Positions 5,221 through 64,000 of a stretch of DNA of 64,000 bases are shown piece after piece. The notes below the pieces were generated by a model. That model saw nothing but the letters and a program-made list of their open reading frames with translations. It was not told the DNA's origin and did no database searches. The stretch is from Escherichia coli. GTDB lineage: Bacteria; Pseudomonadota; Gammaproteobacteria; Enterobacterales; Enterobacteriaceae. Location of the stretch: the NCBI RefSeq assembly GCF_050920415.1, contig NZ_CP169309.1. One strand, written 5' to 3'. The translations under genes were made by a program, and so were the position numbers. Position 1 is the first letter of the stretch. Every line of letters begins with the position of its first letter.

Positions 5221-6330
<1,110 letters not shown>

Positions 6331-6364
6331 TGAGGGACACGGTGCCTGTTTCATAAAGATCATT

Positions 6365-6783
6365 TATACCCGTCATACTTCAAGTTGCATATGCGTTGGC
6401 AAGTTATTCAGGGATAGCCGGATGAGTGACATCACCATCCGGCTTAAGATTCCATACTATAATAATTCGAGTTGCAGGACAAAACGCCAGTGGCGTTTTG
6501 AACAACGCTTGCGTTGACCCTGAAAGGGTGAGGCCTAAGGCCGAGTAACGCGACAGGCGAGTGACAAATTCGTCGGGAACGAATTTGACCAGCCTCTGGC
6601 TGGCCTTCGGTGAAAGGCATCCTGCCTTTCAGTCATCCCCAGTCACTTACTGGGGTGAGCGACAAATCCGCATGGAGCGGATTTGAACGCTGCTTGCAGC
6701 GGTCCCGTAAGGGGTGAGGCCCATGGATGGGCCGAATAACTCGCAGACGCAGCACATGCAACTTGAAGTATGATGGGTATATA
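6365..6783. repeat. composite ERIC/IRU-like intergenic repeat with terminal inverted repeats and an embedded REP-like hairpin
   Basis: About 30-bp terminal inverted repeats (TACCCGTCATACTTCAAGTTGCATATGCG at 6365-6395, reverse complement at 6747-6783); internal ACTGGGGTGAGCG and GCAACTTGAAGTATGA match the ERIC consensus as I recall it; hairpin GCCGGATGAGTGACATCACCATCCGGC at 6418-6444. Confidence 0.5.
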
Positions 6784-6939
6784 CACAATGAACTTCAAGA
6801 CACTTGCTTCGGTATCTGGAAATTATCATTAATTCTGGATGCGACCAGCCTTGCTATATCTGGCAATGTTTCTTCAAAAACGTCGATATTGTATCCCAGA
6901 AATCTCACACACTGCTGAACCGGCATGTTCATTAATTAT

Positions 6940-7351
6940 TTATCCAGGCCATTTGCAATCAGTACCATCACTATTATATGCCTCAATATTTTCTTCAAAC
7001 TCAGTTATTTTTCCACTTTTCGATTTATAGTAAGAGCTATTAAATCTTGCACCCTGCGTAGCAACAACATACAATCCGTTGACTTTACATCCTATAACCT
7101 CACTCCATGTATATGTAAACTCTGAAGGTCTATCATCGAAAGTCACTTCCAATTTTTTCGTAAATGCAAGAGGTATGAAATTTGAGGATATTCCATAAAC
7201 CACATAACCTAAAACAACATCACCAGAAGATACTTCAACAAATTTTAAATTTATCTTCCCGAAACTAAAACAGCCAACCGTAGTTTGTTATTTAGCAAAT
7301 AAGAAAAAGGGCATCAAACAAAAAATTAAAACAAATAATTTAACTTTCATA
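6940..7351 (-). pseudogene. small secreted-protein gene interrupted by an in-frame TAA after the signal peptide
   Basis: ATG at 7351 encodes MKVKLFVLIFCLMPFFLFAK then TAA; the same frame continues open into ORF 6940..7203 (…VVYGISSNFIPLAF…). Confidence 0.35.
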
Positions 7352-7703
7352 TCATTTACTCCAATTCAGTTATTCGCCTCTGTACAAAAGCACACACAGA
7401 TTTTGAATTAATGGCGTACAAAAACATAATCGGATGAAAATACCACACCGGAATATTACTGATATAGCGGGATCTTACTCATTCGCTAGACTGAAAATGC
7501 AATTGAACAGAAATTTCTTACTAGTGTTTTTATCAGATGATCGGAAAGGAAATCAACTCACTGGCAAGTATCATAAGCTCAAATTGGCATATTGTATATT
7601 CCCATAAATACTTTTATTTTTTGATTAACATACTCAATACTACACATCACTAATTGAGAGAAGATTAACTTCATCATCTTTGATTAGGTACGTTTTTTAA
7701 TTT

Positions 7704-7922
7704 TCAATGACGCATCATAAAAAAGGGCTTACCAAGTTTAACACTAATAACAGGATATAAAGAAAACATATTGCTATATGAATCCTTTGGCGATGTTTTG
7801 GTTATGGTAATCTTTCCTTCTTTCAAGTGCTCTGCTATTATATGAAATTGAATCGGTCTTGTTGCATCACTTACCCGCAATGGATTACCAGCGTAAGCTT
7901 CATATCCTCCACCATTATTCAT
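7704..7922 (-). other. gene fragment in AT-rich debris (open frame extends upstream to 8020 without a start codon)
   Basis: ORF track plus manual frame extension; no start or RBS, low-complexity AT-rich context. Confidence 0.2.
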
Positions 7923-8268
7923 ATGTAAAATAGTGTATTCGTCATTTAAAAATGACTGCTTACTATCGTAGACTTGGTAGTATATATTACTTATATCAAG
8001 ATAAATTACTATAGAGATATACTTAATTTTTCATTTAGCATTAATGATGTATCCATGGAATCTATACATCTTTCAATATCAGTTATTTTTTCTTCTATAT
8101 ACGTAGCATAATTTTTTGGCACTGGCGTGTTTAGCCCTCATATACCCTCATTAACTAAGACACCATTTTGCTTGCTTTTTACATTGTAATAAAGACAATC
8201 AATATTGAATTTATTATTTTTATATTTCAGTGTTGTATATACAGTAAAATCATGCAGCGAACGCCCAT

Positions 8269-8544
8269 CTAAAACAATTGCGGGCGTGTCAGAAAAAAGT
8301 CAAATGAATAAGATGGATTATTTTCATAATCAGTCATAAATTTCATCTTTCTTATTTCATGATCAACGATCGCATAGATCTCATGATTAGATTCATCATA
8401 TCCATAAATGATTTCACCACCAGTACTGGCAGTAGCAGTAGCACTACTACAAATCAACATAATTACAAGTACATATCTAGTCAAGTTGAAAATCCTTAGG
8501 GGCAGATGATGTTTTTTCCAAGATGGATTGAAATTTTTCAACAT
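8269..8544 (-). CDS. hypothetical small protein with hydrophobic N-terminal segment, possibly a degraded or orphan immunity gene
   Basis: ORF track; segment YVLVIMLICSSATATAS resembles a signal peptide; AT-rich context. Confidence 0.25.
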   Translation of the reverse strand: MLKNFNPSWKKHHLPLRIFNLTRYVLVIMLICSSATATASTGGEIIYGYDESNHEIYAIVDHEIRKMKFMTDYENNPSYSFDFFLTRPQLF

Positions 8545-8854
8545 AAGAATCCATTAATTGCTTCTGATATTTTTCATTAATTATTTTTCGCGTATTATTA
8601 TATTAAATTTTATCACTGTTAATATATGTGGGGATTTTTACTCGTAAAAATCCCCGCCTCAATTCCCCAAATCATAATTGATACAGGACACAACTCTAGC
8701 AATGGTATCGTGAATAGTTTTCTTTAATAAGGCACGTCTCAATTCTTGAACATAAATTCGAATTATTTAGTAAAAAAACATCATCCCTGGGAGTATTACC
8801 TATTTTTGTATAATGCTATATTTATAGTAAACAATTCACAAGAAAATATTATTA

Positions 8855-9805
8855 CTAATATTTATATTCCTCCCACTGAGCACCGTATCGATGCTTTAAC
8901 AGTTTAACTTTAATTTCATCATATGTTTTAACTTTACTACCATCAATCTTAAGGCGAATTTTATTCGAGGTGATATCAACATAATTTCTATTTTCCCCAC
9001 CCGCAGGGAAAAAATCAAACATAAAATTAGACATGTTTTGTTCTTTTTTCATGAGAGCTCCATACTCACACATGTCATTTATATTTTGTATGTATGGAGT
9101 GCCCCCCTGACATGATGGATAATGAAAATCAATTATAGTAAAAAGCGATTTATTGACACTCCTCTGAAAGAACCACTTATTATTTACAATACGATAGGTT
9201 AAAGATTTAAATGTATACCAGTGACTTCCTGGAAGAAAAGAGTAAGCTTCATTAAGATTGACAGTAAATACCTTAGTTTCTCCAGAGGAAAGCTTTACCC
9301 ATTCTGATTTTATATCACAATTATCGCCCATACCAAAATAAAGCTCATCATTGGCATCATCCTCAACAAAATCACATATATTGGTTGCGGAAGGACGGAA
9401 TTTCAGATAGAAACCACTTGTGGATATTAAAAAAGAATCCTCACATAAAGGAGAAAAAAAATAAGGCTCCGATGTGTGTGAGGAGATAGGTAATAATCGT
9501 CTATGAATGAAATTTTCGCTACCCCCCAAATTTGTAAAACTTATTTTTGCTAACACACGAGAGTCAATTTGCTTAACGGTTAATCTAACATCAACATCAA
9601 ACATATTACGATTTGGCAATTTTTCCTCGACTCCGTCAGTGTAATGTGATAACTCAAGTATATTGTCCTCAAGAGTCATCGAATTTAATTTTTGTTCGGA
9701 AACATATTGTGCAATAACCTCATCATTGCAGTATCCATGAAATGAAATAAACATTAGCACTGCAATCTTAACTAATCTCAAAATACTTTTCAATATTGTA
9801 TGCAT
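8855..9805 (-). CDS. putative periplasmic immunity protein (paralogue of 11491..12312) for the HExxH effector
   Basis: N-terminal signal-like segment MHTILKSILRLVKIAVLMFISF; shares SFLPGSHWYTFKSLTYRIVNNKWF with [24 protein letters not shown] of the other immunity candidate; start chosen at the internal Met. Confidence 0.5.
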   Translation of the reverse strand: MHTILKSILRLVKIAVLMFISFHGYCNDEVIAQYVSEQKLNSMTLEDNILELSHYTDGVEEKLPNRNMFDVDVRLTVKQIDSRVLAKISFTNLGGSENFIHRRLLPISSHTSEPYFFSPLCEDSFLISTSGFYLKFRPSATNICDFVEDDANDELYFGMGDNCDIKSEWVKLSSGETKVFTVNLNEAYSFLPGSHWYTFKSLTYRIVNNKWFFQRSVNKSLFTIIDFHYPSCQGGTPYIQNINDMCEYGALMKKEQNMSNFMFDFFPAGGENRNYVDITSNKIRLKIDGSKVKTYDEIKVKLLKHRYGAQWEEYKY

Positions 9806-10567
9806 TATTAAAAACCAGCGGGTCATGTTTTGATTTTAATTCTTTTGCATTGGCAATTTCTCTTTTTTTTCCCAAATCGTTACTGCTTAATCCACCATAA
9901 TACTGTTCTCCATCCCAGATAATAAAAAGGTGAGATAACTCATGGCATAATGTGGAGACTCGAGAGTTTTCTCCCGTTGGATTTTTACATGTGAAATTTT
10001 GTAAGATATCTATAGATATTCTTTCTCGATACTCTAACTTTAAAAGTTCAGCCTTCGACTTATTTTTATACTCACTACTTTGGTATTGGGGCCGATTTAG
10101 ATCTATATGAGTCGTCTGAGCAGCCGGTATACGGGCTGAACCATTGACTAAATTGGTATAATTTTTAAAATTGCCATATATTAGTTGTACATTATCTTGC
10201 GTTCGAGTTTCAATGATCAAGCTATCACAAATCATGATCATTCTGTAAACCCCCTCTTTTATAAAAGTATGTGCGTCAATATTCTTGGTTTGTGGAGTGA
10301 AGTTCCCATTATTATCTGACTTTTGACAAGGAGCATAGTGTTCCATTGTTATAATAGCATCACCTGGTAATCCAAATATATCTTCAAAATTTTTCTGATC
10401 TGCTGGTGTCCATGCTTCCAGATTTTTGCTCTGATATTCAATACTCGCTTTGTTTCTTCCAAAGCAGGCGTTATCATGTTGTAAAATTGATCAGTAACCT
10501 TTGCTTCTTTTTTACATATATTGCCTTTTTGAGTTACCCCTTGTGAACTTCCTTTGTTATTATTCAT
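9768..10567 (-). pseudogene. frameshifted paralogue of the vgrG-linked HExxH effector
   Basis: N-terminal part in ORF 10349..10582 (KEAKVTDQFYNMI versus KEQKITDHFKIMI in the intact copy), remainder in a different frame 9768..10346 carrying STLCHELSH and NNAYNIEKYFEI; frames differ at about 10346-10351. Confidence 0.5.
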
Positions 10568-10975
10568 AAACACCTCCCTCAATCATATCTATACTTTGAT
10601 GCAATAGCCTGACTTTTATCGTCAGCTCACTGTCAGTGATAAATATTTCCGTATACCCATCCTTATCCGTTTCCCCTCGCGCTTGTGTGCCGTCCTCAAA
10701 AAAGGCAATGTAGCGTGTTTCTGAATACGGTATCCCGTCATCGTCTGTAAAATGAAACTGGAGGGTGTATTTCTCAGGTTCATCCTTATCTTCATTGTCG
10801 TTCCCAGAATCATTTCCATCGCCACCACCGACCCCGCCATTGCCTTGCCCGCCCTCTGCACCACCATCTTTATCACTACCTTCATCCGTCAGTGCCTCCA
10901 GCACGCCCGGTTGCAGTGTCGGTACCGGAGTCCCCGGACTACCCCCACCATTCAGATTTATCTTCGGCCCCCAGG
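10560..10975 (-). pseudogene. vgrG 3' fragment (C-terminal about 135 codons of a second vgrG allele)
   Basis: Nucleotide-level similarity to the 3' end of the intact vgrG (for example CCGTCCTCAAAAAAGGCAATGTAGCG..TTTCTGAATACGGTATCCCGTCATCGTCTGTAAAATG), breaking off at about 10975 where the H-repeat fragment begins; encodes DEPEKYTLQFHFTDDDGIPYSETRYIAFFEDGTQ. Confidence 0.6.
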
Positions 10976-11340
10976 GAAAGATTACGAAAGCCCGCTCCCC
11001 GCAAGGACTGACGCCAGATACTTTCTGTCCATGGCTGCTTTTCGCATCTTACGTCTTAACCCTGCCTTGAATACCTTATCATTCGTCAAAATATTAATAG
11101 CGATGTGCCGTATCCCTGAAAATAATTCTGCTGCATTTCCTCTTCTTATTTTGCAGTCGTCTTCATTCATTACCACGTCCAGACGCCAGTGCAGCTTATT
11201 CTCCACGTGCCCGTGGTTTCGGATTGCTGTGGCGAACTTCTCTGCGGTTAAATCAGCAGAACTGATATAATATCTGACCGTCATTTCTGGCTCTTTCTTT
11301 TGTTCTGCTATTATGGACCGAAAGGAGACTGCCACGCATA
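10976..11340 (-). mobile_element. H-repeat (ISAs1-family transposase) 3' fragment
   Basis: ORF 10982..11335 encodes ...[71 protein letters not shown]..., which I recognise as the C-terminal third of the Rhs-associated H-repeat protein; no intact transposase. Confidence 0.6.
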
Positions 11341-11490
11341 ATTTCTTCAGCCCTTTCCATTCAAACGTGAAATCAATAAGTTCATCAGGGACATCGCAAA
11401 CAATATGAAGACGGATTTCTTCTCTGCCGTGACTAAAATGCGAATTATTTAGTACAAAAAAAGCGGCGCACCTTGTTCTTTCCCAGATTC

Positions 11491-12312
11491 CTAATATGGC
11501 AACTTTAAGTTATCGCCGTCTATACTTATAGAAATTTCATCAGGGGTGACGTAAATAGAATTTTTTTCATCCTCAATTGCCCATAACTGATTAATAAAAA
11601 AGTGTTTTTTTTCATCTAATAACAAATTATCACATGTAGTAAAATTATTAATATCAAAAAGATCATCAGCACAATTAATTTTTAAATTTAAAAAATAAAG
11701 AAAAATATTATTGATTGATTTGAGTGTAAACCACTTGTCATTAACAAATTTATAGCCAGATGATTTTATAAAATAATAATTATCTCCTGGTATAAAGGCA
11801 TACATATCATTTAAGGTTATACTCAACAAAAAACTACGACCTGGTTTAATAGTATTCCACCGTTCAGGATTCGTATTAATTTCAAAAGGACATGAACCAC
11901 CTAAGTAGTCCAACGTGATATTCCCAGAGTTGATTCTGAATGGTTTTTTGCATATTGCATCATATTCATCTCCTTTTCCATCTTTTACTTTCATAGGTAG
12001 ATAATATTTAGAAAAAAAATACGTGGTAGAGCTTTTGTTAGTAAAGGTTATGTTAGCAAAAATCCTGTTATTTTTTTTACTCATAGCTAATTGAGCATTG
12101 ACATCCGCTATATAATTTATATGATTACATTTTTTCTTACACTCATCATAATTTTCGATAGGATAAATTAATGGCCTTCCTTTGATATCTCTCTCAAGCC
12201 CAAACCCGTATTTTTTTATTAAAACCATTTCATCTGCAGTCGATTGAAAGGAATAGAAAAATATAATATTTACGATTGTCATTATTATGATTTTTTTTAT
12301 AGCTTGCAGCAT
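11491..12312 (-). CDS. putative periplasmic immunity protein for the adjacent HExxH effector
   Basis: 273-aa ORF directly downstream of the effector; signal-peptide-like N-terminus [26 protein letters not shown]; paralogous to 8855..9805. Confidence 0.5.
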
Positions 12313-12335
12313 TAATATATTTCTCGACTTATTAG

Positions 12336-13127
12336 TTAATGGAGAAGTGCTTTTTCTAATTCCGCTATTTTTTTCTTAACTAAATTGCTTAATATTTCAT
12401 CATTAATCGAGTCTATCTCACTTTCAATTAATCTTATTTCAAAATATCTTTCTATGTTATATGCATTCTCAAATATTTGATCTTTTTGTTTAGAGATCAG
12501 TTTAGTTGCAATACGGATATGTTCGTCATATGAAACTTCATCCTCTTTGCACGTTGAATATTTATCAGTAGTTGTATAATCCTGTGACCACATACCACCT
12601 TTTTTATTATCCCTATAATACCACTGAATATGAGACATTTCATGACATAAAGTAGCAACATGAGAATCCTTTCCCGTTACTGGATTTTTTTTGCCATCTC
12701 TATACTCAAATTTTGCGCCTATGTTAATTATATAGGGCATATCCTTACTTGGGCTGACGAATGCTGCAAATTCATTACAACCTGTATAATTTATAAAACT
12801 GCTCATTGTTAAATCATTAGCTATAATCATTAATCTTCTCACACCATCCATCATAAGAAATCTAGCATTCATGCGCCTGCCTGTATTATGTCCATATTTT
12901 CTTATATTAACTTCCTTATTTCCTTTAACACCAAAGATCTTACTGAAATCATATTCCTCCTGTGCTCCCCATCTCAAAAGATCATCTGCTCTTTTTATCA
13001 AAACCAACTTTTGTGCCTTACGAGCCTTATCAATCATTATTTTAAAATGATCAGTTATTTTTTGCTCTTTCACACATTCTTCTGGCTCTGGCTTTGGTTG
13101 TCCAGAAGTTTGATTATTATCGTCCAT
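12336..13127 (-). CDS. putative T6SS effector, zincin-like metallopeptidase (HExxH motif), vgrG-linked
   Basis: HEMSH in ATLCHEMSHIQWY; no signal peptide; probable start MDDNNQ at 13127 overlaps the vgrG stop by 11 bp; conserved C-terminal ENAYNIERYFEI shared with the paralogue. Confidence 0.55.
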   Translation of the reverse strand: MDDNNQTSGQPKPEPEECVKEQKITDHFKIMIDKARKAQKLVLIKRADDLLRWGAQEEYDFSKIFGVKGNKEVNIRKYGHNTGRRMNARFLMMDGVRRLMIIANDLTMSSFINYTGCNEFAAFVSPSKDMPYIINIGAKFEYRDGKKNPVTGKDSHVATLCHEMSHIQWYYRDNKKGGMWSQDYTTTDKYSTCKEDEVSYDEHIRIATKLISKQKDQIFENAYNIERYFEIRLIESEIDSINDEILSNLVKKKIAELEKALLH

Positions 13128-15522
13128 AGTGTCCTTCCATTGAGAGAAAATCATCATTCGCAAATAGCAACTTCACTTTAATTTCATGTTTGCTAGATAC
13201 AAAAAAACGCTCTGTATACCCCTCTTCATCCGTTTCTCCGCGGGTCTGCGTGCCATCCTCAAAGAAGGCAATGTAGCGGGTTTCTGAATACGGTATCCCG
13301 TCATCGTCTGTAAAATGGAACTGGAGAGTATATTTTTCAGGTTCATCCTCATCGTCACCTCGATCATCACCACCACTTCCGGTCACGCAGTTCCCTCCAG
13401 AGTTTTCATTTTCTTCTCCGGAATCACTGCCATCACCACTCTTCTCATCCCCCAGTGTCTTCAGCACCGCCGGTTGCAGCGTCGGTACAGGCGTCCCCGG
13501 ACTGCCTCCCCCGTTCAGATTTATCTTCGGCCCCACTATATCCACGCCCCCTGAATGGATGACCACAAACGAGCCACCCAACTTCAGGCTTATCCGGCTG
13601 CTGCTCTCCAGCACGATATCCCCGTCCACCTTTATCCCCAGCGCACCACTCACCTTCCTCGCCAGGTCGCCTTTCACCTCCAGGCTGTGTTTTCCCTCCA
13701 CCAGGCTGATGTGGTTTCCTGTCGTTTTGTGCTCCTGCTTCCCTTCCACCGTCACCTTTCGGTCGTTTCTGACGTACAGACCGTCATCGTGGCTGACGTT
13801 CACCCGCCGGTCGTTCGTCACCTTCAGCGTCTGGTCGTTGCGCACCGTGATGCTCCGGTCATGGGCCACCGTGATACTCTGGTCGTGGCCCCCTTCTTTT
13901 CTGGTGCCGACCTCAACCGTCTGCCCCTTCACCACCCTTATCTTCTGGTCGTTACCGATGGTCTCCGTATGGTCATGCTTCACGTCCGTCGTCCGGTCGT
14001 TAAGCACCTCCGTGTCCATGTTCTTCTGCGCGTGGATATACACCTGCTCACTGTCCGTCGCATCCTCGAAACGCAGTTCATTAAAGCCGCTTCCTTTATA
14101 GGTCTTCGAGCGGATGGTCATCTGCGTCCGCGTGCCCGGTAAATCCCCCGGTGAACGGTTATCTTCATGGTAGGTCCGCCCCGTCACAATGGGCTGGTCC
14201 GGGTCTCCGTTCAGAAAGTCCACTATCACTTCCTGACCCACACGCGGTATCGCCAGATTGCCGAACCCCGGTCCCGCCCATGCCTGCGACACCCGTATCC
14301 AGCATGAACTCTCCTCCGTCATCCCGTGATAACGGTCCCAGTGAAACTTCACCCGTACCCGGCCATGCTCGTCGCAGAATATCTCCTCGCCCTTCGGCCC
14401 GGTCACGATGGCACTCTGCGGGCCGTCCACCTTCGGCTTCGGCAGCGGCGCGTGACGCCACGTCCTGTCTGCCGGTATCACCTCAAACTGGTTACTCAGC
14501 GTCGTCCCTTCACCGTGACTGCCGTGCAGCGCCTGCGGCTGTTCTCCCCGCAGTGTGCTTCCCACAACCTGCCATTCCCGGTTCAGCGTATCCGACGGGT
14601 GACCCGACAGGGTAAACCGCGTTCCCGGCCACAGCCGCGCCGTGTTACACACCCCGCTCGCCGTCTCCGCCCCGTTCCGCCACCCTTCCGTCTGGTAACG
14701 CGCAAAATCCTGGCCATGCTGCTCATCCTTGAAACGCCCCGGATAATCAAATATCTCGTACTGCGTTCCCTGCCCGTTCAGGCTCTCCCCGTCATGGCTG
14801 TAGTACCCCGGCCACCCCGGCACTTTAAACGTATAATCCTGCGTCTCCACCGACGCCACGCTTATCTGCGCACGGTAACGAAACTCACTGATGTACTCCG
14901 TCGTTCCCCCGGTCGTCGTGTTCGGGTTAAACGCCAGCGCCCCCATTCCCGTCAGCCCCGCCACGTCATCACACACCGCCAGCTTCTGTTCCGGCCCGTC
15001 CTGACTGCAGCGTTCATAAAAGAAGATACCTTCCTCCGCCCACAGCCGGGTCAGGAACGCCAGGTCGCTCTCCCCGTACTGCACGCAGAACTCCCGCGCC
15101 GGATGGTCTTCATAAAACAGCGGCATCCACGCCGTCACCCCGTTCTCTCTCAGAAGCTGTGCTGATATCGTCCCGATGTCCTGCTGCTGGAAGATACGGA
15201 AGTTCTGCCGTAACCCTGCCCGCCACAGCGGCGGGCTGATGCTCAGGGAATAACGCATCTGCCAGTCGTTGTTCTCACCGAGCTGCACCTCCGTCACGAT
15301 ACCGCTGACGTAACGCTGTGCAGTGTCGCCCTGCCAGACCGTCAGCACCGCGCTTTTCTCCAGAAAATCCTCCGCCGTCAGGTCGGACAGCCCGCTGGCG
15401 ATATCCACATCCAGGATGAACGGTGTGCAGTGGTGCTGGTACAGACGGAAGCTCACCACCGCCGTCGCCATCTCCACGATGTCGTCCACCGACAGCGTGA
15501 AACGTAATCCTTCTGAGGACAT
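13117..15522 (-). CDS. vgrG: T6SS spike protein VgrG with C-terminal extension (Gly/Asp/Glu-rich linker plus TTR-like adaptor domain)
   Basis: gp27/gp5-like core (LRFTLSVDD..., octapeptide beta-helix repeats KIRVVKGQTVEVGTRKEGGHDQSITVAHDRSITVRND...); likely start MSSEGLRFTL at 15522 (ORF track begins at 15555). Confidence 0.85.
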   Translation of the reverse strand: MSSEGLRFTLSVDDIVEMATAVVSFRLYQHHCTPFILDVDIASGLSDLTAEDFLEKSAVLTVWQGDTAQRYVSGIVTEVQLGENNDWQMRYSLSISPPLWRAGLRQNFRIFQQQDIGTISAQLLRENGVTAWMPLFYEDHPAREFCVQYGESDLAFLTRLWAEEGIFFYERCSQDGPEQKLAVCDDVAGLTGMGALAFNPNTTTGGTTEYISEFRYRAQISVASVETQDYTFKVPGWPGYYSHDGESLNGQGTQYEIFDYPGRFKDEQHGQDFARYQTEGWRNGAETASGVCNTARLWPGTRFTLSGHPSDTLNREWQVVGSTLRGEQPQALHGSHGEGTTLSNQFEVIPADRTWRHAPLPKPKVDGPQSAIVTGPKGEEIFCDEHGRVRVKFHWDRYHGMTEESSCWIRVSQAWAGPGFGNLAIPRVGQEVIVDFLNGDPDQPIVTGRTYHEDNRSPGDLPGTRTQMTIRSKTYKGSGFNELRFEDATDSEQVYIHAQKNMDTEVLNDRTTDVKHDHTETIGNDQKIRVVKGQTVEVGTRKEGGHDQSITVAHDRSITVRNDQTLKVTNDRRVNVSHDDGLYVRNDRKVTVEGKQEHKTTGNHISLVEGKHSLEVKGDLARKVSGALGIKVDGDIVLESSSRISLKLGGSFVVIHSGGVDIVGPKINLNGGGSPGTPVPTLQPAVLKTLGDEKSGDGSDSGEENENSGGNCVTGSGGDDRGDDEDEPEKYTLQFHFTDDDGIPYSETRYIAFFEDGTQTRGETDEEGYTERFFVSSKHEIKVKLLFANDDFLSMEGHYGR

Positions 15523-15805
15523 ATAAACCCCATAGCTACCGCACTCATGGTGCAAACCCTACAGAATTATAAGAAAGACTTAAGTGAGATATCCGTCAGA
15601 TAGCAACTATTAGGAAAATATTTATATACATTTCATGAATACATTCATTAATACCGAGATGTTTTTGTCTATATAAACAGAGCAAGCTAACGTCCTCACT
15701 CCATGAAAGAAACTACGTAGGGGCCTTTCGGTCCATAACAACTTTTTCCCTGTTATATCCTGACGTTCTGGTCTACTGGTGTAGTCATGCATATTGCAAC
15801 GTTCT

Positions 15806-15915
15806 ACCCATGGAAAGATAAATAAAGCCAGCTCTCCGCAAGGACTGAAGCGAGGTGCTTTCTGTCCATAGCTGCTTTTCGCAACTTACTCCTTAACCCA
15901 ACACTGAATTTCTTA
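15806..15915 (-). mobile_element. short H-repeat (ISAs1-family) 3'-end remnant, direct repeat of 10976-11065
   Basis: About 110 bp about 85% identical to the 3' end of the H-repeat fragment at 10976..11340 (..CCGCAAGGACTGA..CTTTCTGTCCAT.GCTGCTTTTCGCA..); encodes ..[25 protein letters not shown]. Confidence 0.45.
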
Positions 15916-16055
15916 TGATTTGTCACAGTATGAACTTTTAATTTCATACATTGCTCTTTAGTCAATAGAAGAAAAATAAGCACCCTCTCCCAAACGACAC
16001 AAATAACCTGCAAATGGGAAATGACTTATTACTTAGAAATTTGCAGAGATATAAA

Positions 16056-16337
16056 TCACGAGATATATCCACCTTTTGAGTTAACAGTTACAGACGTTAT
16101 AACATTATCTTTTATCCAGATATCAACAAAAAAGTCCTTACCACAATAAAGACATTCACAATATCCTTCAGAGATAAAGTTGTCCTTAAGTTTATTTCTG
16201 GTTATATTAATAAGTTTATCGCCAGGATTGTAATGTACTAAATTTCCAGATGGCACAAACATCTCAATTTCACACTGTCCTGACGTTCCACATCGAGGGC
16301 AAACGCACCATGCTTTCAATAAATCATAATTCGACAT
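16056..16337 (-). CDS. hypothetical Cys-rich zinc-ribbon-like small protein
   Basis: 93-aa ORF with two Cys clusters (CVCPRCG and CECLYCG); located between ybbP and vgrG. Confidence 0.35.
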   Translation of the reverse strand: MSNYDLLKAWCVCPRCGTSGQCEIEMFVPSGNLVHYNPGDKLINITRNKLKDNFISEGYCECLYCGKDFFVDIWIKDNVITSVTVNSKGGYIS

Positions 16338-16387
16338 TATATTACCTTAATTTATTTCACATCAGCATCCCCCCTTGCAAACCACAA

Positions 16388-16744
16388 CTAAACTATTCCC
16401 ATAAAATACAACGAGATAATTTTACTGTTAAACGTACATTCACAAAACTCAGGGGAAGAAAAATGACCATCAGTCAAAAATAAAGATAGTTTGCTTAGTG
16501 CGTAATCAATTGAATCAAGCGACAAGTATAATTTTATTACTAGTGAGTTCTGTATCAGGACATCATTTTCATTGGGGGATTGTAAAAGTAATAAATTTTT
16601 ATACGCTACAGGTGATCTGTTTTCCAGTCTAATAGGTTTGCTTGCTTCCGTCTCCAATAAACTATAAAGAGCACAAACCATCTCATGAGCATCATCTTTC
16701 TCAAAATGTAAATGAAACCCGCCCAGAGATTTATTAGCAATCAT
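16388..16744 (-). CDS. hypothetical protein
   Basis: 118-aa ORF from the ORF track in the AT-rich island flank; no recognisable motif. Confidence 0.3.
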   Translation of the reverse strand: MIANKSLGGFHLHFEKDDAHEMVCALYSLLETEASKPIRLENRSPVAYKNLLLLQSPNENDVLIQNSLVIKLYLSLDSIDYALSKLSLFLTDGHFSSPEFCECTFNSKIISLYFMGIV

Positions 16745-16841
16745 AATACGTTTCTAAAGTTGATTTGAAATTTTGCATTTCATGCTCATCAAAAAAATAA
16801 ATATATTTTAACTACAAAGCAAACATCACAGCGCATAGCGG

Positions 16842-58476: not shown

Positions 58477-60981
58477 ATGTCACAAACTATCGACCTGACC
58501 CTGGACGGCCTGTCCTGCGGTCACTGCGTTAAACGCGTGAAAGAAAGTCTCGAACAGCGCCCGGACGTTGAGCAGGCGGATGTGTCTATCACTGAAGCAC
58601 ACGTTACGGGTACTGCCAGTGCAGAACAGCTGATCGAAACCATCAAACAAGCGGGTTATGACGCATCTGTAAGCCACCCAAAGGCTAAACCGCTGGCGGA
58701 GTCATCAATCCCGTCGGAAGCACTGACAGCGGTTTCTGAGGCGCTTCCGGCAGCAAACGCCGATGACGATGACAGCCAGCAGTTGCTGCTGAGCGGCATG
58801 AGCTGCGCCAGCTGTGTCACCCGCGTACAAAATGCGCTGCAAAGCGTACCGGGCGTCACTCAGGCACGGGTAAACCTGGCGGAGCGTACTGCGCTGGTGA
58901 TGGGCAGTGCCTCTCCACAAGATTTAGTGCAGGCGGTGGAAAAAGCGGGCTACGGCGCGGAAGCGATTGAAGATGACGCTAAACGCCGCGAGCGCCAGCA
59001 GGAAACCGCCGTCGCTACCATGAAGCGCTTCCGCTGGCAGGCAATTGTCGCTCTGGCGCTAGGTATCCCGGTGATGGTCTGGGGGATGATCGGCGATAAC
59101 ATGATGGTCACCGCCGACAACCGCAGTCTGTGGTTAGTTATCGGCCTGATAACGCTGGCGGTAATGGTTTTCGCCGGCGGGCATTTTTACCGTAGCGCAT
59201 GGAAAAGCCTGCTGAACGGTGCGGCGACAATGGATACGCTGGTGGCGCTGGGTACTGGCGTGGCGTGGCTCTATTCAATGAGCGTCAACCTGTGGCCGCA
59301 GTGGTTCCCGATGGAAGCGCGACATCTTTATTACGAAGCCAGTGCGATGATTATCGGTCTGATTAATCTCGGTCATATGCTGGAAGCGCGCGCACGTCAG
59401 CGTTCTTCAAAGGCGCTGGAAAAGTTACTCGATTTAACCCCGCCGACGGCGCGCCTGGTCACTGACGAAGGTGAAAAAAGCGTGCCGCTGGCAGATGTTC
59501 AGCCTGGTATGTTACTGCGCCTGACGACCGGCGATCGCGTACCGGTAGATGGTGAAATTACCCAGGGCGAAGCGTGGCTGGATGAAGCAATGCTGACGGG
59601 CGAACCTATCCCACAGCAAAAAGGCGAAGGCGATAGCGTTCATGCAGGTACCGTGGTGCAGGACGGTAGCGTGCTGTTTCGTGCCAGTGCGGTTGGCAGC
59701 CATACTACGCTGTCACGGATCATTCGTATGGTGCGCCAGGCCCAGAGCAGTAAACCGGAAATCGGCCAGTTGGCGGATAAAATCTCTGCCGTATTTGTGC
59801 CGGTAGTGGTGGTGATTGCGCTAGTCAGTGCGGCCATCTGGTACTTCTTTGGTCCGGCACCGCAAATTGTTTATACCCTGGTGATTGCCACTACGGTACT
59901 GATTATCGCCTGCCCGTGTGCGCTGGGGCTGGCAACGCCAATGTCGATTATTTCCGGCGTCGGGCGTGCGGCTGAATTTGGCGTGCTGGTACGGGACGCC
60001 GACGCGCTGCAACGCGCCAGTACGCTCGACACCGTAGTGTTCGATAAAACCGGGACGCTGACCGAAGGGAAGCCGCAGGTTGTCGCAGTGAAAACATTTG
60101 CTGATGTTGACGAAGCGCAGGCGCTGCGTCTGGCGGCGGCACTGGAACAAGGTTCCAGCCATCCGCTGGCACGAGCGATCCTCGATAAAGCAGGCGATAT
60201 GCAACTGCCGCAGGTCAACAGCTTCCGTACATTGCGTGGGCTGGGCGTGAGCGGTGAAGCAGAAGGTCATGCGTTATTGCTGGGTAATCAGGCGTTGTTA
60301 AATGACCAGCAAGTCGATACTAAAGCGATTGAAGCAGATATTTCAGCTCAGGCATCGCAAGGGGCAACGCCTGTGCTGCTGGCGATTGACGGGAAAGCGG
60401 TGGCCCTGCTGGCGGTGCGCGATCCGTTGCGTAACGATAGCGTGGCGGCACTGCAACGTCTGCATAAAGCGGGATATCGTCTGGTGATGCTAACCGGGGA
60501 TAACCCGACCACCGCCAATGCGATCGCCAAAGAAGCAGGGATTGATGAGGTGATAGCCGGGGTGCTGCCAGACGGTAAAGCCGAAGCGATCAAACGTCTG
60601 CAAAGTGAAGGACGTCAGGTGGCAATGGTGGGTGACGGCATTAACGACGCGCCAGCACTGGCCCAGGCGGATGTCGGTATTGCGATGGGGGGCGGCAGCG
60701 ATGTTGCCATTGAAACCGCGGCGATTACCCTGATGCGCCATAGCCTGATGGGTGTTGCGGATGCGCTCGCAATTTCCCGCGCAACGCTGCGCAACATGAA
60801 GCAGAACCTGCTCGGTGCGTTTATCTACAACAGCATTGGTATTCCGGTCGCCGCCGGTATTTTGTGGCCGTTCACTGGAACCCTGCTTAACCCGGTGGTT
60901 GCCGGAGCGGCAATGGCGCTCTCGTCGATCACCGTAGTGAGTAACGCCAACCGGTTGCTGCGGTTTAAACCGAAAGAGTGA
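58477..60981 (+). CDS. copA: Cu(I)-translocating P1B-type ATPase
   Basis: 834-aa ORF with two N-terminal metal-binding domains ([16 protein letters not shown]), CPC motif, phosphorylation motif DKTGTLT and [10 protein letters not shown]. Confidence 0.93.
58677..58683 (+). other. slippery heptamer CCCAAAG in copA at codon about 69 (candidate -1 programmed frameshift site giving the short CopA(Z) product)
   Basis: Heptamer seen in sequence at the end of the first metal-binding domain (…SHPKAKP…); recalled from published E. coli copA work. Confidence 0.5.
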
Positions 60982-61021
60982 TTGGTATTTACTTAATGCG
61001 TTTGTGAGATCCAGTTCTTGT

Positions 61022-61265
61022 TGCGCTCCTTTTATGAGTCATGCCATATAAAGTGACTGGCGCAAGGAGCGCGCAGGGGGCGGCCAATCGCCGCCGCCCC
61101 CTGCACCCCCGGGCTCTGGCGAACAAAATCGCCGCTGCGCGGTACCCTCGGCTTATCCCTTGCGGCTACCGGGTCGGGCGCGAGGTAACATCCCTGTAAA
61201 ACGCGCCCTCAGCCCACATCCATGTGGGCTGCCCCGGCCTTCAGGGAACGCCTCGGCGATTTTGA
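61022..61265. repeat. GC-rich palindromic intergenic element (multiple perfect hairpins) between copA and ybaP
   Basis: Hairpins GCAGGGGGCGGC/GCCGCCCCCTGC (61073-61104), AGCCCACAT/ATGTGGGCT (61211-61230), TGCGCTCCTT/AAGGAGCGCG (61022-61073) and long-range CAAAATCGCCG/CGGCGATTTTG; no ORF. Confidence 0.4.
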
Positions 61266-61409
61266 CGCCACCAACACCCGTGCAGTCTTTCGTTTCAAAG
61301 CAAAAACAATTTTTCGATCATATTTAAGCTACCACTGAACAAGCCTCATAACTCCATTTGCGCCATCCCTCACCGCGCGCTAGCATGATATTTCACAAAG
61401 GGAGGTCGT

Positions 61410-62204
61410 ATGGATCTGTTGTACCGGGTAAAAACGCTTTGGGCCGCGCTGCGCGGTAATCATTACACCTGGCCTGCTATCGATATCTCTCTTCCCGACC
61501 ATCGCCATTTTCATCTGATCGGCAGTATTCATATGGGTAGCCACGATATGGCTCCCCTGCCCACCCGTTTGCTCAAAAAGCTCAAAAACGCCGATGCGCT
61601 GATCGTCGAGGCGGATGTTTCCACCAGCGATACGCCTTTTGCCAATTTGCCTGCCTGCGAGGCGCTGGAAGAGCGCATTAGCGAGGAGCAACTCCAAAAC
61701 CTGCAGCACATTAGCCAGGAGATGGGCATTTCTCCGTCGCTCTTTTCTACCCAACCGCTGTGGCAAATCGCGATGGTTCTTCAGGCGACGCAGGCACAAA
61801 AACTGGGGCTGCGGGCAGAATATGGTATCGATTACCAGCTATTGCAGGTGGCGAAGCAACAACATAAACCCGTGATTGAACTGGAAGGGGCAGAAAACCA
61901 GATTGCCATGTTGCTCCAGCTCCCTGACAAAGGACTGGCGCTGCTGGACGATACGCTGACCCACTGGCACACCAACGCTCGTTTGCTGCAACAAATGATG
62001 AGCTGGTGGCTGAATGCACCACCGCAAAATAATGAAATAACGCTGCCTAATACGTTCAGTCAGTCGCTGTACGATGTGCTGATGCATCAGCGAAATCTCG
62101 CCTGGCGGGACAAATTACGCGCTATGCCGCCGGGGCGCTATGTGGTCGCGGTCGGTGCACTACACCTGTATGGAGAAGGGAATTTGCCACAAATGTTGCG
62201 CTAA
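61410..62204 (+). CDS. ybaP: TraB/GumN-family protein
   Basis: 264-aa ORF MDLLYRVKTLWAALRGNHYTWPAIDISLPDHRHFHLIGSIHMG...; followed by hairpin GGCCAATATCGCTATTGGCC. Confidence 0.85.
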   Translation: MDLLYRVKTLWAALRGNHYTWPAIDISLPDHRHFHLIGSIHMGSHDMAPLPTRLLKKLKNADALIVEADVSTSDTPFANLPACEALEERISEEQLQNLQHISQEMGISPSLFSTQPLWQIAMVLQATQAQKLGLRAEYGIDYQLLQVAKQQHKPVIELEGAENQIAMLLQLPDKGLALLDDTLTHWHTNARLLQQMMSWWLNAPPQNNEITLPNTFSQSLYDVLMHQRNLAWRDKLRAMPPGRYVVAVGALHLYGEGNLPQMLR

Positions 62205-62887: not shown

Positions 62888-62910
62888 GTGATGCACACGG
62901 AAGATGAGAT

Positions 62911-63710
62911 GTGGAAAGGATTACAGAGACATTAAGTATCGCTTGTGCAGATGAGATACCGGATATCGCCTTACTTCGGCAAACATCGAGAGAGAAGGTA
63001 TTACATCTGCATTTTGCCAGCGAAGCAGAGAGGTATCGTGAGGAATTCGGGCTGGTGCTGAAAGCACAGCTCGATGAATTTGTTGTTGGCATGCATTCTG
63101 CCGACCCGGTTATCAGGATCGCCAGATTAATATCGCTTGAAGAGATTAACCGCCATCAGGATTTTTTCGAACACTGCGCGAAAGAATATCGTAAGCTGGC
63201 GACAGAGCTTATATTTGCATTGGCTGAACAACTGAATGTTGAGATGGCGGAAAATAACCCGCTAGTTACCTTTGCCCCCTTCAAATGCAACCGTAAGCGA
63301 AAAGGCAAAATGGGAAAGTGGCAGTATTGTTTTCACGGTTTTCATTGTGCATTTGAGAATAAAAAAACAGAGCAAAATATTGAAGTTCCCCTCGCCTACG
63401 GCTTTGATTTCGGCGATCTGGACCCGTATTTTTTTCCGGATTTATCAAATCGACCCCCGACTGGCAGCCTCTGCCAGTGGCTATTTACGATGATTACCAC
63501 GACGGCAGCAGGATCATTCAACAACTGCTGGCGCTGGGAAAGTTAGAAAAAATCCCTTCACCGATCCCACAATACACGGGGGTTGCTGCGGTAGATCGGT
63601 CCAATGTCGACATCGCAAATTTTCGCTCAACACTGGAGAGTCGCCTGCACCGATGTAAATTACGCTGGCTTTTGAAGCGTGTAAAAAATTCACAAAGGAG
63701 CGAAAGATGA
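62911..63710 (+). pseudogene. hypothetical gene apparently split by a +/-1 frameshift (frames 62911..63546 and about 63406..63710)
   Basis: Two overlapping open frames; homopolymers T7 (about 63427-63433) and C5 (about 63455-63459) lie in the overlap; the downstream frame ends in ATGA overlap with the next gene. Confidence 0.4.
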
Positions 63711-64000
63711 AATTTGACCATCTTGTTGATGTTAGCTTCCACAATTTTGTCTTTAACGGAAAATTAGATTTTGTCGAACCGGGGCAAACAATGGCATGGC
63801 TGGAACAAAACTTTGTTGAGCCGGACTCTAAAAATGATATGGGAAATGGTTTTTATATCTGGCTATTTGGCAATGTTGAGTTTCATTTCGAAAGCAACAA
63901 GCTATATATGATTTGGTGCGATTATTTGAGCCAAATCCATTTGGGCAAAGCGATCCGATTTGATAAAGGAATATTGAATAACGTCGCTGAGTTGAACGTT
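63707..64000 (+). CDS. hypothetical protein, partial (runs off window end)
   Basis: Open frame from ATG 63707 with SD-like AAGGAGCG upstream (MKFDHLVDVSFHNFVFNGKLDFVEPGQTMAWLEQNF...); no stop before the window end. Confidence 0.4.
   Translation, partial: MKFDHLVDVSFHNFVFNGKLDFVEPGQTMAWLEQNFVEPDSKNDMGNGFYIWLFGNVEFHFESNKLYMIWCDYLSQIHLGKAIRFDKGILNNVAELNV

Follow-up and report, generated by a model that had tools for sequence, protein, structure and literature searches.

A TRIP1e (RRS-type) repeat at the ybaQ site between copA and ybaP of Escherichia coli, and its likely relationship to the TwoAYGGAY motif

The stretch of DNA analysed here (the window, 64,000 nucleotides of Escherichia coli contig NZ_CP169309.1) carries, in order, glsA on the minus strand, copA on the plus strand (58477-60981), an intergenic region of 428 bp, and then ybaP (61410-62204) and ybaK, both on the plus strand. 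A sequence-only reading had drawn attention to a GC-rich, non-coding stretch with several palindromes at 61022-61265, and all of the features that it described are present: the G+C content of this stretch is 64.8%, against 52.6% for the whole window. The element is thus real, with limits slightly wider than proposed; the non-coding repeat block extends from about 61020 to 61285 and has 65% G+C.

Alignment with the corresponding alleles of K-12 W3110 and strain 536 shows that homology ends within the final two codons of copA, picking up again about 60 bp upstream of the ybaP start, so that alignment and annotations together delimit an allele-specific segment (approximately 60978-61349) which differs from both strains. 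The annotation of K-12 places ybaQ between copA and ybaP, as the earlier reading had expected; there the cassette consists of REP clusters and ybaQ, annotated as a HigA-family antitoxin, and in strain 536 it consists of higA (ybaQ) together with higB, encoding a RelE/ParE-family toxin, whereas the cassette in the window is 370 bp long and non-coding. The suspicion that ybaQ is missing here was borne out, a tblastn search of the whole window finding no homologue of YbaQ or HigB (best E 0.59-0.74) and no remnant of ybaQ, and alignment with K-12 places the repeat at the very site of ybaQ, in agreement with the suggested replacement. Of 5426 complete E. coli genomes, 347 (about 6%) match the window allele over the full query; one carrier strain, MFDS1022581, is 100% identical to it.

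Some minor features of the breakpoint may be recorded. The 3' end of copA reads AAAGAGTGA in the window and AAGGAATAA in K-12, both encoding K-E-stop, and these synonymous differences in the last two codons and the stop fall exactly at the homology break. The 3' end of copA (60964-60980) also forms a 17-nt imperfect inverted repeat (82%) with the right flank of the repeat (61283-61299). These two features may be a trace of allele exchange.

Judged by its sequence and position, the copA-ybaP element is a copy of TRIP1e, a member of the TRIP1 family whose copies are also called replication risk sequences (RRS); it is already described, and it lies at its described position. The TRIP1 repeat of E. 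coli was first named by Rudd (1999), and has been described among novel repeats as having three copies of 146-273 bp. A screen of 6725 genomes led to the definition of five TRIP1 types, of which TRIP1e is 265 bp long, begins 38 bp after the copA stop, ends 124 bp before the ybaP start and is carried by 232 of the 6725 genomes (Li et al., 2024; PMC10888264). The two best-known family members are TRIP1a, which is RRS-lysO, and TRIP1c, which is RRS-dusC (Pham, Wood, Dunbar, Cox and Goodman; PMC10592627). The window agrees with the TRIP1e type in position, with copA ending at 60981, the repeat at 61020-61285 and ybaP starting at 61410, and its copy is 94.5% identical to K-12 TRIP1a over 271 bp, where membership calls for about 90% or more over some 265-273 bp. 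Identity is 90% to the copy at aqpZ-lysO in O157 and 90.4% to that at the dusC locus. The 20-mer GGGGGTGCAGGGGGCGGCGG, reported by Pham et al. as the G-quadruplex-forming tract of the RRS, has a single match, free of mismatches, at 61091-61110 on the minus strand; this is the G-rich and better-folding strand, to which we assign the repeat as a whole.

The spacer between the copA stop and the repeat (60982-61019, 38 bp) is specific to the window allele, other TRIP1 loci matching only positions 35-305 or 37-328 of the query. On the other side the flank at 61286-61349 is likewise allele-specific, its first 20 bp or so being weakly common to other TRIP1 copies. The core (about 61016-61286) occurs once in the window; nearly all E. 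coli genomes have matches to it at other intergenic sites, the median being three places per genome, so the multi-copy repeat that had been proposed is indeed an interspersed family. Other copies lie at aqpZ-lysO (94.5% in K-12) and dusC-yohP (90%). At aqpZ-lysO, TRIP1 is inverted in O157 relative to K-12 and the intergenic cassette is built differently; the MG1655 annotation has no feature at the TRIP1a site.

A diverged TRIP1-like element, which we call subfamily B, is found at yegH-asmA (MG1655 2,139,486-2,139,758; record L096:5487-5759), a site outside the five TRIP1 loci defined by Li et al. (2024; PMC10888264). Strain LR-31 has it in full length between inverted REPs; in K-12 and E15 it is 5'-truncated to 176-178 nt and inverted. 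Further records of this site are L092:1166-1624, L090:1166-1910 and L091, and strain AF44 has a RelE/ParE and HTH pair in its place. A link between TRIP1 and toxin-antitoxin cassettes was considered, as the two alternate both at copA-ybaP and at yegH-asmA, but the two toxin-antitoxin pairs have no detectable similarity and we take the alternation as ordinary turnover at hot spots. In Pseudocitrobacter faecalis (L019:1-4351) a TRIP1-type copy lies between mdlB (smdB) and glnK-amtB, a locus unlike every TRIP1 locus of E. coli, which indicates that the family has moved between intergenic sites. On a 2.8-kb contig labelled "Proteobacteria bacterium" (L018:1-720), copA is followed by a TRIP1e 98% identical to the window copy; an inverted subfamily-B fragment lies about 280 bp beyond it at the end of the contig, an arrangement absent from the window.

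Other classes of repeat fit less well. The earlier reading had offered BoxC and a MITE as candidates. The BoxC/TMECO consensus, CCCTCNCCC-N3-6-GGGNGAGGG-N3-GGGNGAGGG (Holder et al., 2015), has no match anywhere in the window. The BoxC/PIT/TMECO intrastrand-triplex repeats described by those authors resemble the present element in being G/C-rich and intergenic, in having hairpins of a G-block and a C-block, in arresting polymerases in vitro and in marking variable intergenic regions; BoxC is, however, another sequence family (CCCTCNCCC...GGGNGAGGG...GGGNGAGGG), about 36 nt long and with 23 copies in K-12. As for a MITE, neither terminal inverted repeats nor target duplications were found at TRIP1e: the two ends of the block do not form an inverted repeat with one another, and it is not bordered by direct repeats, there being no clean empty site for comparison. 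RSA, listed as 150/151 bp with six copies in K-12, is probably different from TRIP1, the two being compared by length and copy number only. REP/BIME elements are also intergenic, palindromic, strain-polymorphic and located 3' of genes, and K-12 has REPs at copA-ybaP itself, but REPs are units of 35-40 bp present in hundreds of copies and associated with a RAYT transposase, whereas TRIP1 is about 270 bp long and has one to five copies. At the curated Rfam thresholds nothing passes for the window copy, and matches to MIR1437 correspond to just the G/C hairpin.

The window copy is predicted to fold into three hairpin domains, all read here on the minus strand. The copA-proximal end of the repeat (61023-61072) forms a hairpin with the stem GCGCTCCTT/AAGGAGCGC, whose 9 bp (61023-61031/61064-61072) are additional to the palindromes first described. 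Next to it lies a perfect G/C hairpin of 12 bp (61073-61084/61093-61104), which has the conserved loop GGCGAUUG and overlaps the G4 tract. The third domain (61126-61265) resembles the TwoAYGGAY motif in that a long irregular closing stem surrounds two adjacent hairpins; the long-range complementary arms lie at 61124-61139/61249-61264 (16 nt, 88%). The first, H1 (61210-61231, CAGCCCACAUGGAUGUGGGCUG), has the loop AUGGAU; it is the second stem of the earlier reading, which was right about its presence but took it for 9 bp, the perfect stem having 10 (61210-61219/61222-61231). The other, H2 (61176-61208), reads GGGCGCG-UUUUACAGGGAUGUUACCU-CGCGCCC, with a loop region ACA-G-GGA-UGU that becomes ACAUGGAUGU in the Kluyvera copies. 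As RNA, the minus strand folds at -154 kcal/mol (z -6.7) and the plus strand at -134 kcal/mol (z -5.4); as DNA, the values are -83.5 and -79.8 kcal/mol (z -6.7 for minus and -6.5 for plus). None of 200 dinucleotide-preserving shuffles folded as well in any of these cases. The 62-65% G+C and the very stable predicted "double-Y" fold that characterize the family are thus both seen in the window copy.

Conservation of the fold was examined across genera. Homologues were gathered by an exact-match scan for the 18-nt core of H1 with one genome per species, which also returned many unrelated matches (coding sequences in Rhizobiaceae and Methylobacterium, and singletons); TRIP1 homologues came from E. 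coli, E. albertii, E. whittamii, other Escherichia, Kluyvera, Pseudocitrobacter and one more Enterobacteriaceae genome. The alignment of 22 distinct copies gave a consensus fold of 69 pairs, in which 98.3% of the cells are paired and 14 pairs show a compensatory double change; none of 500 shuffles reached these values, and sliding the partners by one to three columns reduced pairing to about 43%. H1 itself is invariant in all 22 homologues, its 18-nt core having been required for their collection. The closing stem covaries (UUCCCUG/AAGGGAU changing to UUUCCUG/AAGGAAU or UCCCCG/AGGGGAU), as does the 12-bp G/C hairpin, where GGGGGCGGC/GCCGCCCCC changes to GGGGGAGGA/TCCTCCCCC or CAGGGTGG/CCACCCTG around a conserved loop, and the copA-proximal hairpin covaries likewise, three of its pairs having compensatory changes; within the TwoAYGGAY-like domain, helices 2-10 have support from covariation.

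The two strands are not equivalent in this alignment. There are 102 G·U cells in 17 pairs and seven A·C cells in two pairs, and the consensus folds at -92 kcal/mol on the G4 strand against -77 kcal/mol on the other; the G·U excess and the better consensus fold identify the G4 strand as the single strand under selection. The single-stranded template fold proposed for the RRS fits this, and selection on an RNA would show equally the same. Given that the compensatory changes preserve a 12-bp hairpin which competes with the G-quadruplex, the block to polymerases may be the hairpin fold, and not the G4.

A scan of 60500-61900 with all Rfam models placed TwoAYGGAY (RF01731) at the top on the minus strand (61126-61265, 30.2 bits, E 0.025). 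This lies below the gathering score of 43, and the window copy is accordingly not filed as a member; the K-12 TRIP1 copies score 28-31 bits. The Kluyvera homologues, with 86-88% identity to the window copy across about 272 nt, exceed the cut-off at 54.2 and 44.6 bits, and bona fide TwoAYGGAY sequences of Lachnospiraceae score 72-79 bits and share with the repeat an identical CAGCCCACAUGGAUGUGGGCUGAG and the 18-nt core of H1. As in the motif described by Weinberg et al. (2010), a long P1 closing stem, which covaries, encloses two adjacent hairpins with loops of the form ACA-Y/R-GGA-YGU, the loops ACAUGGAUGU and ACAGGGAUGU are common to both, and the gamma-proteobacterial copies of the motif are also multi-copy. 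The AUGGAU loop of H1 fits AYGGAY, whereas the second loop of the window copy, AGGGAU, has a purine in place of the Y, yet ACAGGGAUGU loops occur in the original seed. TRIP1 differs further in adding two hairpin domains and the G4 tract; moreover, the RRS has been characterized as a DNA element, and the TwoAYGGAY annotation is that of an RNA with no known function. Taken together, these observations make a family relationship of the window copy to TwoAYGGAY likely. The papers on TRIP1 (PMC10888264) and RRS (PMC10592627) make no mention of TwoAYGGAY, Rfam or CsrA, and we found no paper on TwoAYGGAY that deals with TRIP1 or RRS; what is added here to the literature consulted is this relationship and the covariation across genera, the element itself being already known.

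Beyond TRIP1, at least five TwoAYGGAY copies of Psychromonas ingrahamii are in the original seed, Edaphovirga cremea has 11 copies of the motif at 41-42 bits, and several Shewanella species and one Thiotrichaceae genome carry a motif of this type; in the gamma-proteobacteria, interspersed repeats are its usual carriers. The repeats in Edaphovirga (L055-L065), the Thiotrichaceae metagenome-assembled genome (L034-L037) and Shewanella (L010, L016, L033, L042, L083 and L084) are unrelated multi-copy repeats with the identical hairpin GCCCACAUGGAUGUGGGC and a second hairpin with a GGA loop; the Edaphovirga cores form inverted pairs about 280 nt apart. In Kluyvera, Pseudocitrobacter and another Enterobacteriaceae genome a second, unrelated two-hairpin core of the TwoAYGGAY type, GUCCGCCAUGGAUGGCGGAC ... 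GACAGGACGUC (37-49 bits), is found at a distance of about 85-150 nt from the TRIP1 copy, oriented oppositely to it (L019:2218-2281, L068:4104-4167, L043:1594-1657 and L054:9360-9423). The flanks of the Lachnospiraceae copies, read by eye, contain large ORFs and no conserved neighbour.

With regard to function, the published work concerns the DNA. RRS-lysO and RRS-dusC are both rich in G and C, and each repeat lies some 650 kb from dif; their G-rich strand, with the G4-forming tract, stops Pol I, II and IV in vitro, and with this strand as the template of lagging-strand synthesis, post-replication gaps as long as 2 kb arise wherever the element is placed; at least one RRS copy is conditionally essential, and deletion or inversion alters global supercoiling (PMC10592627). 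The plus strand of the window corresponds to that of a complete genome with 100% identity, which starts at dnaA and has the locus at 3.72 of 5.22 Mb. At this position the fork runs to lower coordinates, and the minus (G4) strand is therefore the lagging-strand template, a deduction which assumes a normal position of the terminus and with which synteny to MG1655 agrees; the same reasoning returns the published orientation of both K-12 RRS.

We consider it probable that TRIP1e acts by the published RRS mechanism, that is, by a single-stranded DNA fold which blocks polymerases and leaves a gap, and also as a substrate for recombination. As the fork unwinds the region, the G-rich minus strand would fold through its G4 tract and the conserved hairpins; on the lagging-strand template this fold would stall DNA polymerases and leave a transient single-stranded gap, which would be loaded with SSB and RecA and has been proposed to relieve topological stress. 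A repeat of more than 260 bp that is 90-95% identical to the other copies in addition provides homologous recombination with a substrate for inverting large segments of the chromosome, and six TRIP1a/1e rearrangements and one TRIP1e/1c rearrangement have been reported (Li et al., 2024; PMC10888264). That the copA-ybaP copy itself forms gaps we infer by analogy with the K-12 elements, to which it is 90-94.5% identical over about 271 bp: it has their G4 20-mer and their fold of three domains, it closely follows a stop codon in an intergenic region, and its G4 strand is the template for lagging-strand synthesis. Unlike them, it lies at copA-ybaP (about 508 kb on the K-12 map, and roughly 0.4 Mb nearer to the origin than RRS-lysO), no more than 3-6% of strains carry it, and its position is not that of a symmetrical flank of the Ter macrodomain. 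The best explanation is that the window copy is a third, natural RRS-type element in this lineage, in the orientation shown to be active for the K-12 RRS. A copy number of TRIP1 that varies from one to five, and TRIP1e in 3-6% of genomes, count against this mechanism at copA-ybaP, as they fit a dispensable element, and the conserved ACA..GGA hairpin loops are left unexplained by the gap model.

The strongest competing explanation is that TRIP1e has no function of its own at copA-ybaP, being a selfish or neutral repeat which entered a hot spot by recombination and is relevant only as a substrate for further recombination. Every locus is polymorphic for the presence and for the orientation of the element, other genera and species hold their copies elsewhere (mdlB-glnK in Pseudocitrobacter, alx-sstT in E. 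whittamii), the same intergenic sites alternatively house toxin-antitoxin pairs or REPs, and inversions between TRIP1a and 1e and between 1e and 1c are documented (PMC10888264), all of which a neutral repeat would accommodate. Such an element would not be expected to keep a strongly conserved fold through compensatory changes across genera, nor does neutrality sit well with ectopic RRS copies forming gaps "wherever they occur" (PMC10592627), with the very low copy number, or with the failure to find transposase signals, terminal inverted repeats or target site duplications, and we regard it as rather unlikely.

The element may instead be a structured RNA, as had also been suggested from the palindromes, since the modelled conserved fold resembles TwoAYGGAY; the published function is at the level of DNA. 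In its specific form this explanation has the minus strand encode an RNA of the TwoAYGGAY class whose loops ACAUGGAUGU and ACAGGGAUGU bind a CsrA dimer, either as a decoy or for control of read-through transcripts by CsrA. TwoAYGGAY, the best Rfam match of this strand and a model whose cut-off the Kluyvera homologues exceed, was earlier proposed as a CsrA-binding RNA, and both loops fit the SELEX consensus RUACARGGAUGU, in which ACA and GGA are 100% conserved and GGA lies in a hairpin loop; all 22 homologues keep ACA and GGA unchanged in both loops, with variation in the adjacent bases, among them the one between ACA and GGA, and it is the minus strand that the G·U excess singles out. An excess of G·T wobbles is, however, equally expected from a single-stranded DNA fold. 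Within 60900-61450 neither a sigma-70-like promoter nor an intrinsic terminator was predicted on either strand, the minus strand is antisense to copA and ybaP, and orientation to the neighbours varies between loci and strains; in addition, the portion of the CsrA CLIP-seq tables of Potts et al. (2017) available to us shows neither a signal for ybjE or dusC nor a peak at the coordinates of TRIP1 in K-12. The decoy RNAs CsrB and CsrC likewise present GGA in hairpin loops that match the SELEX consensus, but TRIP1e has only two or three candidate sites, and lacks a predicted promoter and any known regulation. CsrA binding by a transcript of this element appears to us distinctly improbable.

That TRIP1e is a REP/BIME-like 3' stabiliser or terminator of the copA mRNA is hardly credible: the repeat starts 38 bp past the copA stop, REP clusters occupy the corresponding position in K-12 and several TRIP1 copies lie 40-100 bp 3' of a stop codon (PMC10888264), but no hairpin followed by a U-tract and no other terminator-like site was found, it is the strand antisense to copA that bears the conserved fold and the G·U excess, and the orientation flips between strains.

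Returning to the RRS mechanism, which we favour, the TwoAYGGAY-type core ties an element with an experimental phenotype to an orphan Rfam family. We put forward tentatively, as a possibility somewhat short of an even chance, that TRIP1/RRS is the enterobacterial branch of the orphan TwoAYGGAY class. If this were true, the 200-plus TwoAYGGAY "RNAs" of gut Clostridia and the gamma-proteobacterial repeats of Psychromonas, Shewanella and Edaphovirga would have a function in common with the RRS: all would be single-stranded DNA folds that trigger replication gaps, or else the RRS would act in part by way of a transcript that binds CsrA with its two invariant ACA..GGA loops. The comparison also raises a question that the work on RRS did not, namely why two hairpin loops with the CsrA consensus are invariant. 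For the RRS themselves, a TRIP1e lying about 0.4 Mb origin-proximal to RRS-lysO with the exact G4 tract and in the active orientation would let the "topological relief valve" model be tested in a natural setting.

Variation in the window is not confined to copA-ybaP. Between ybaK and ushA (62900-63750) there are a gene with a DUF6896 domain and a hypothetical gene, both missing in K-12; strain 536 also carries the DUF6896 gene. This is a further variable intergenic site near TRIP1e. The segment 33400-54200, with 59-61% G+C, holds a 20.8-kb gene for a BapA-related adhesin (siiEA) and its type I secretion genes, inserted beside cueR, as annotated in the identical genome. Between mnmH and ybbP (6200-16800) lies a low-GC island (42%) with a type VI secretion VgrG/TssI gene, several genes for hypothetical proteins, a copy of IS2 and a fragment of ISAs1.
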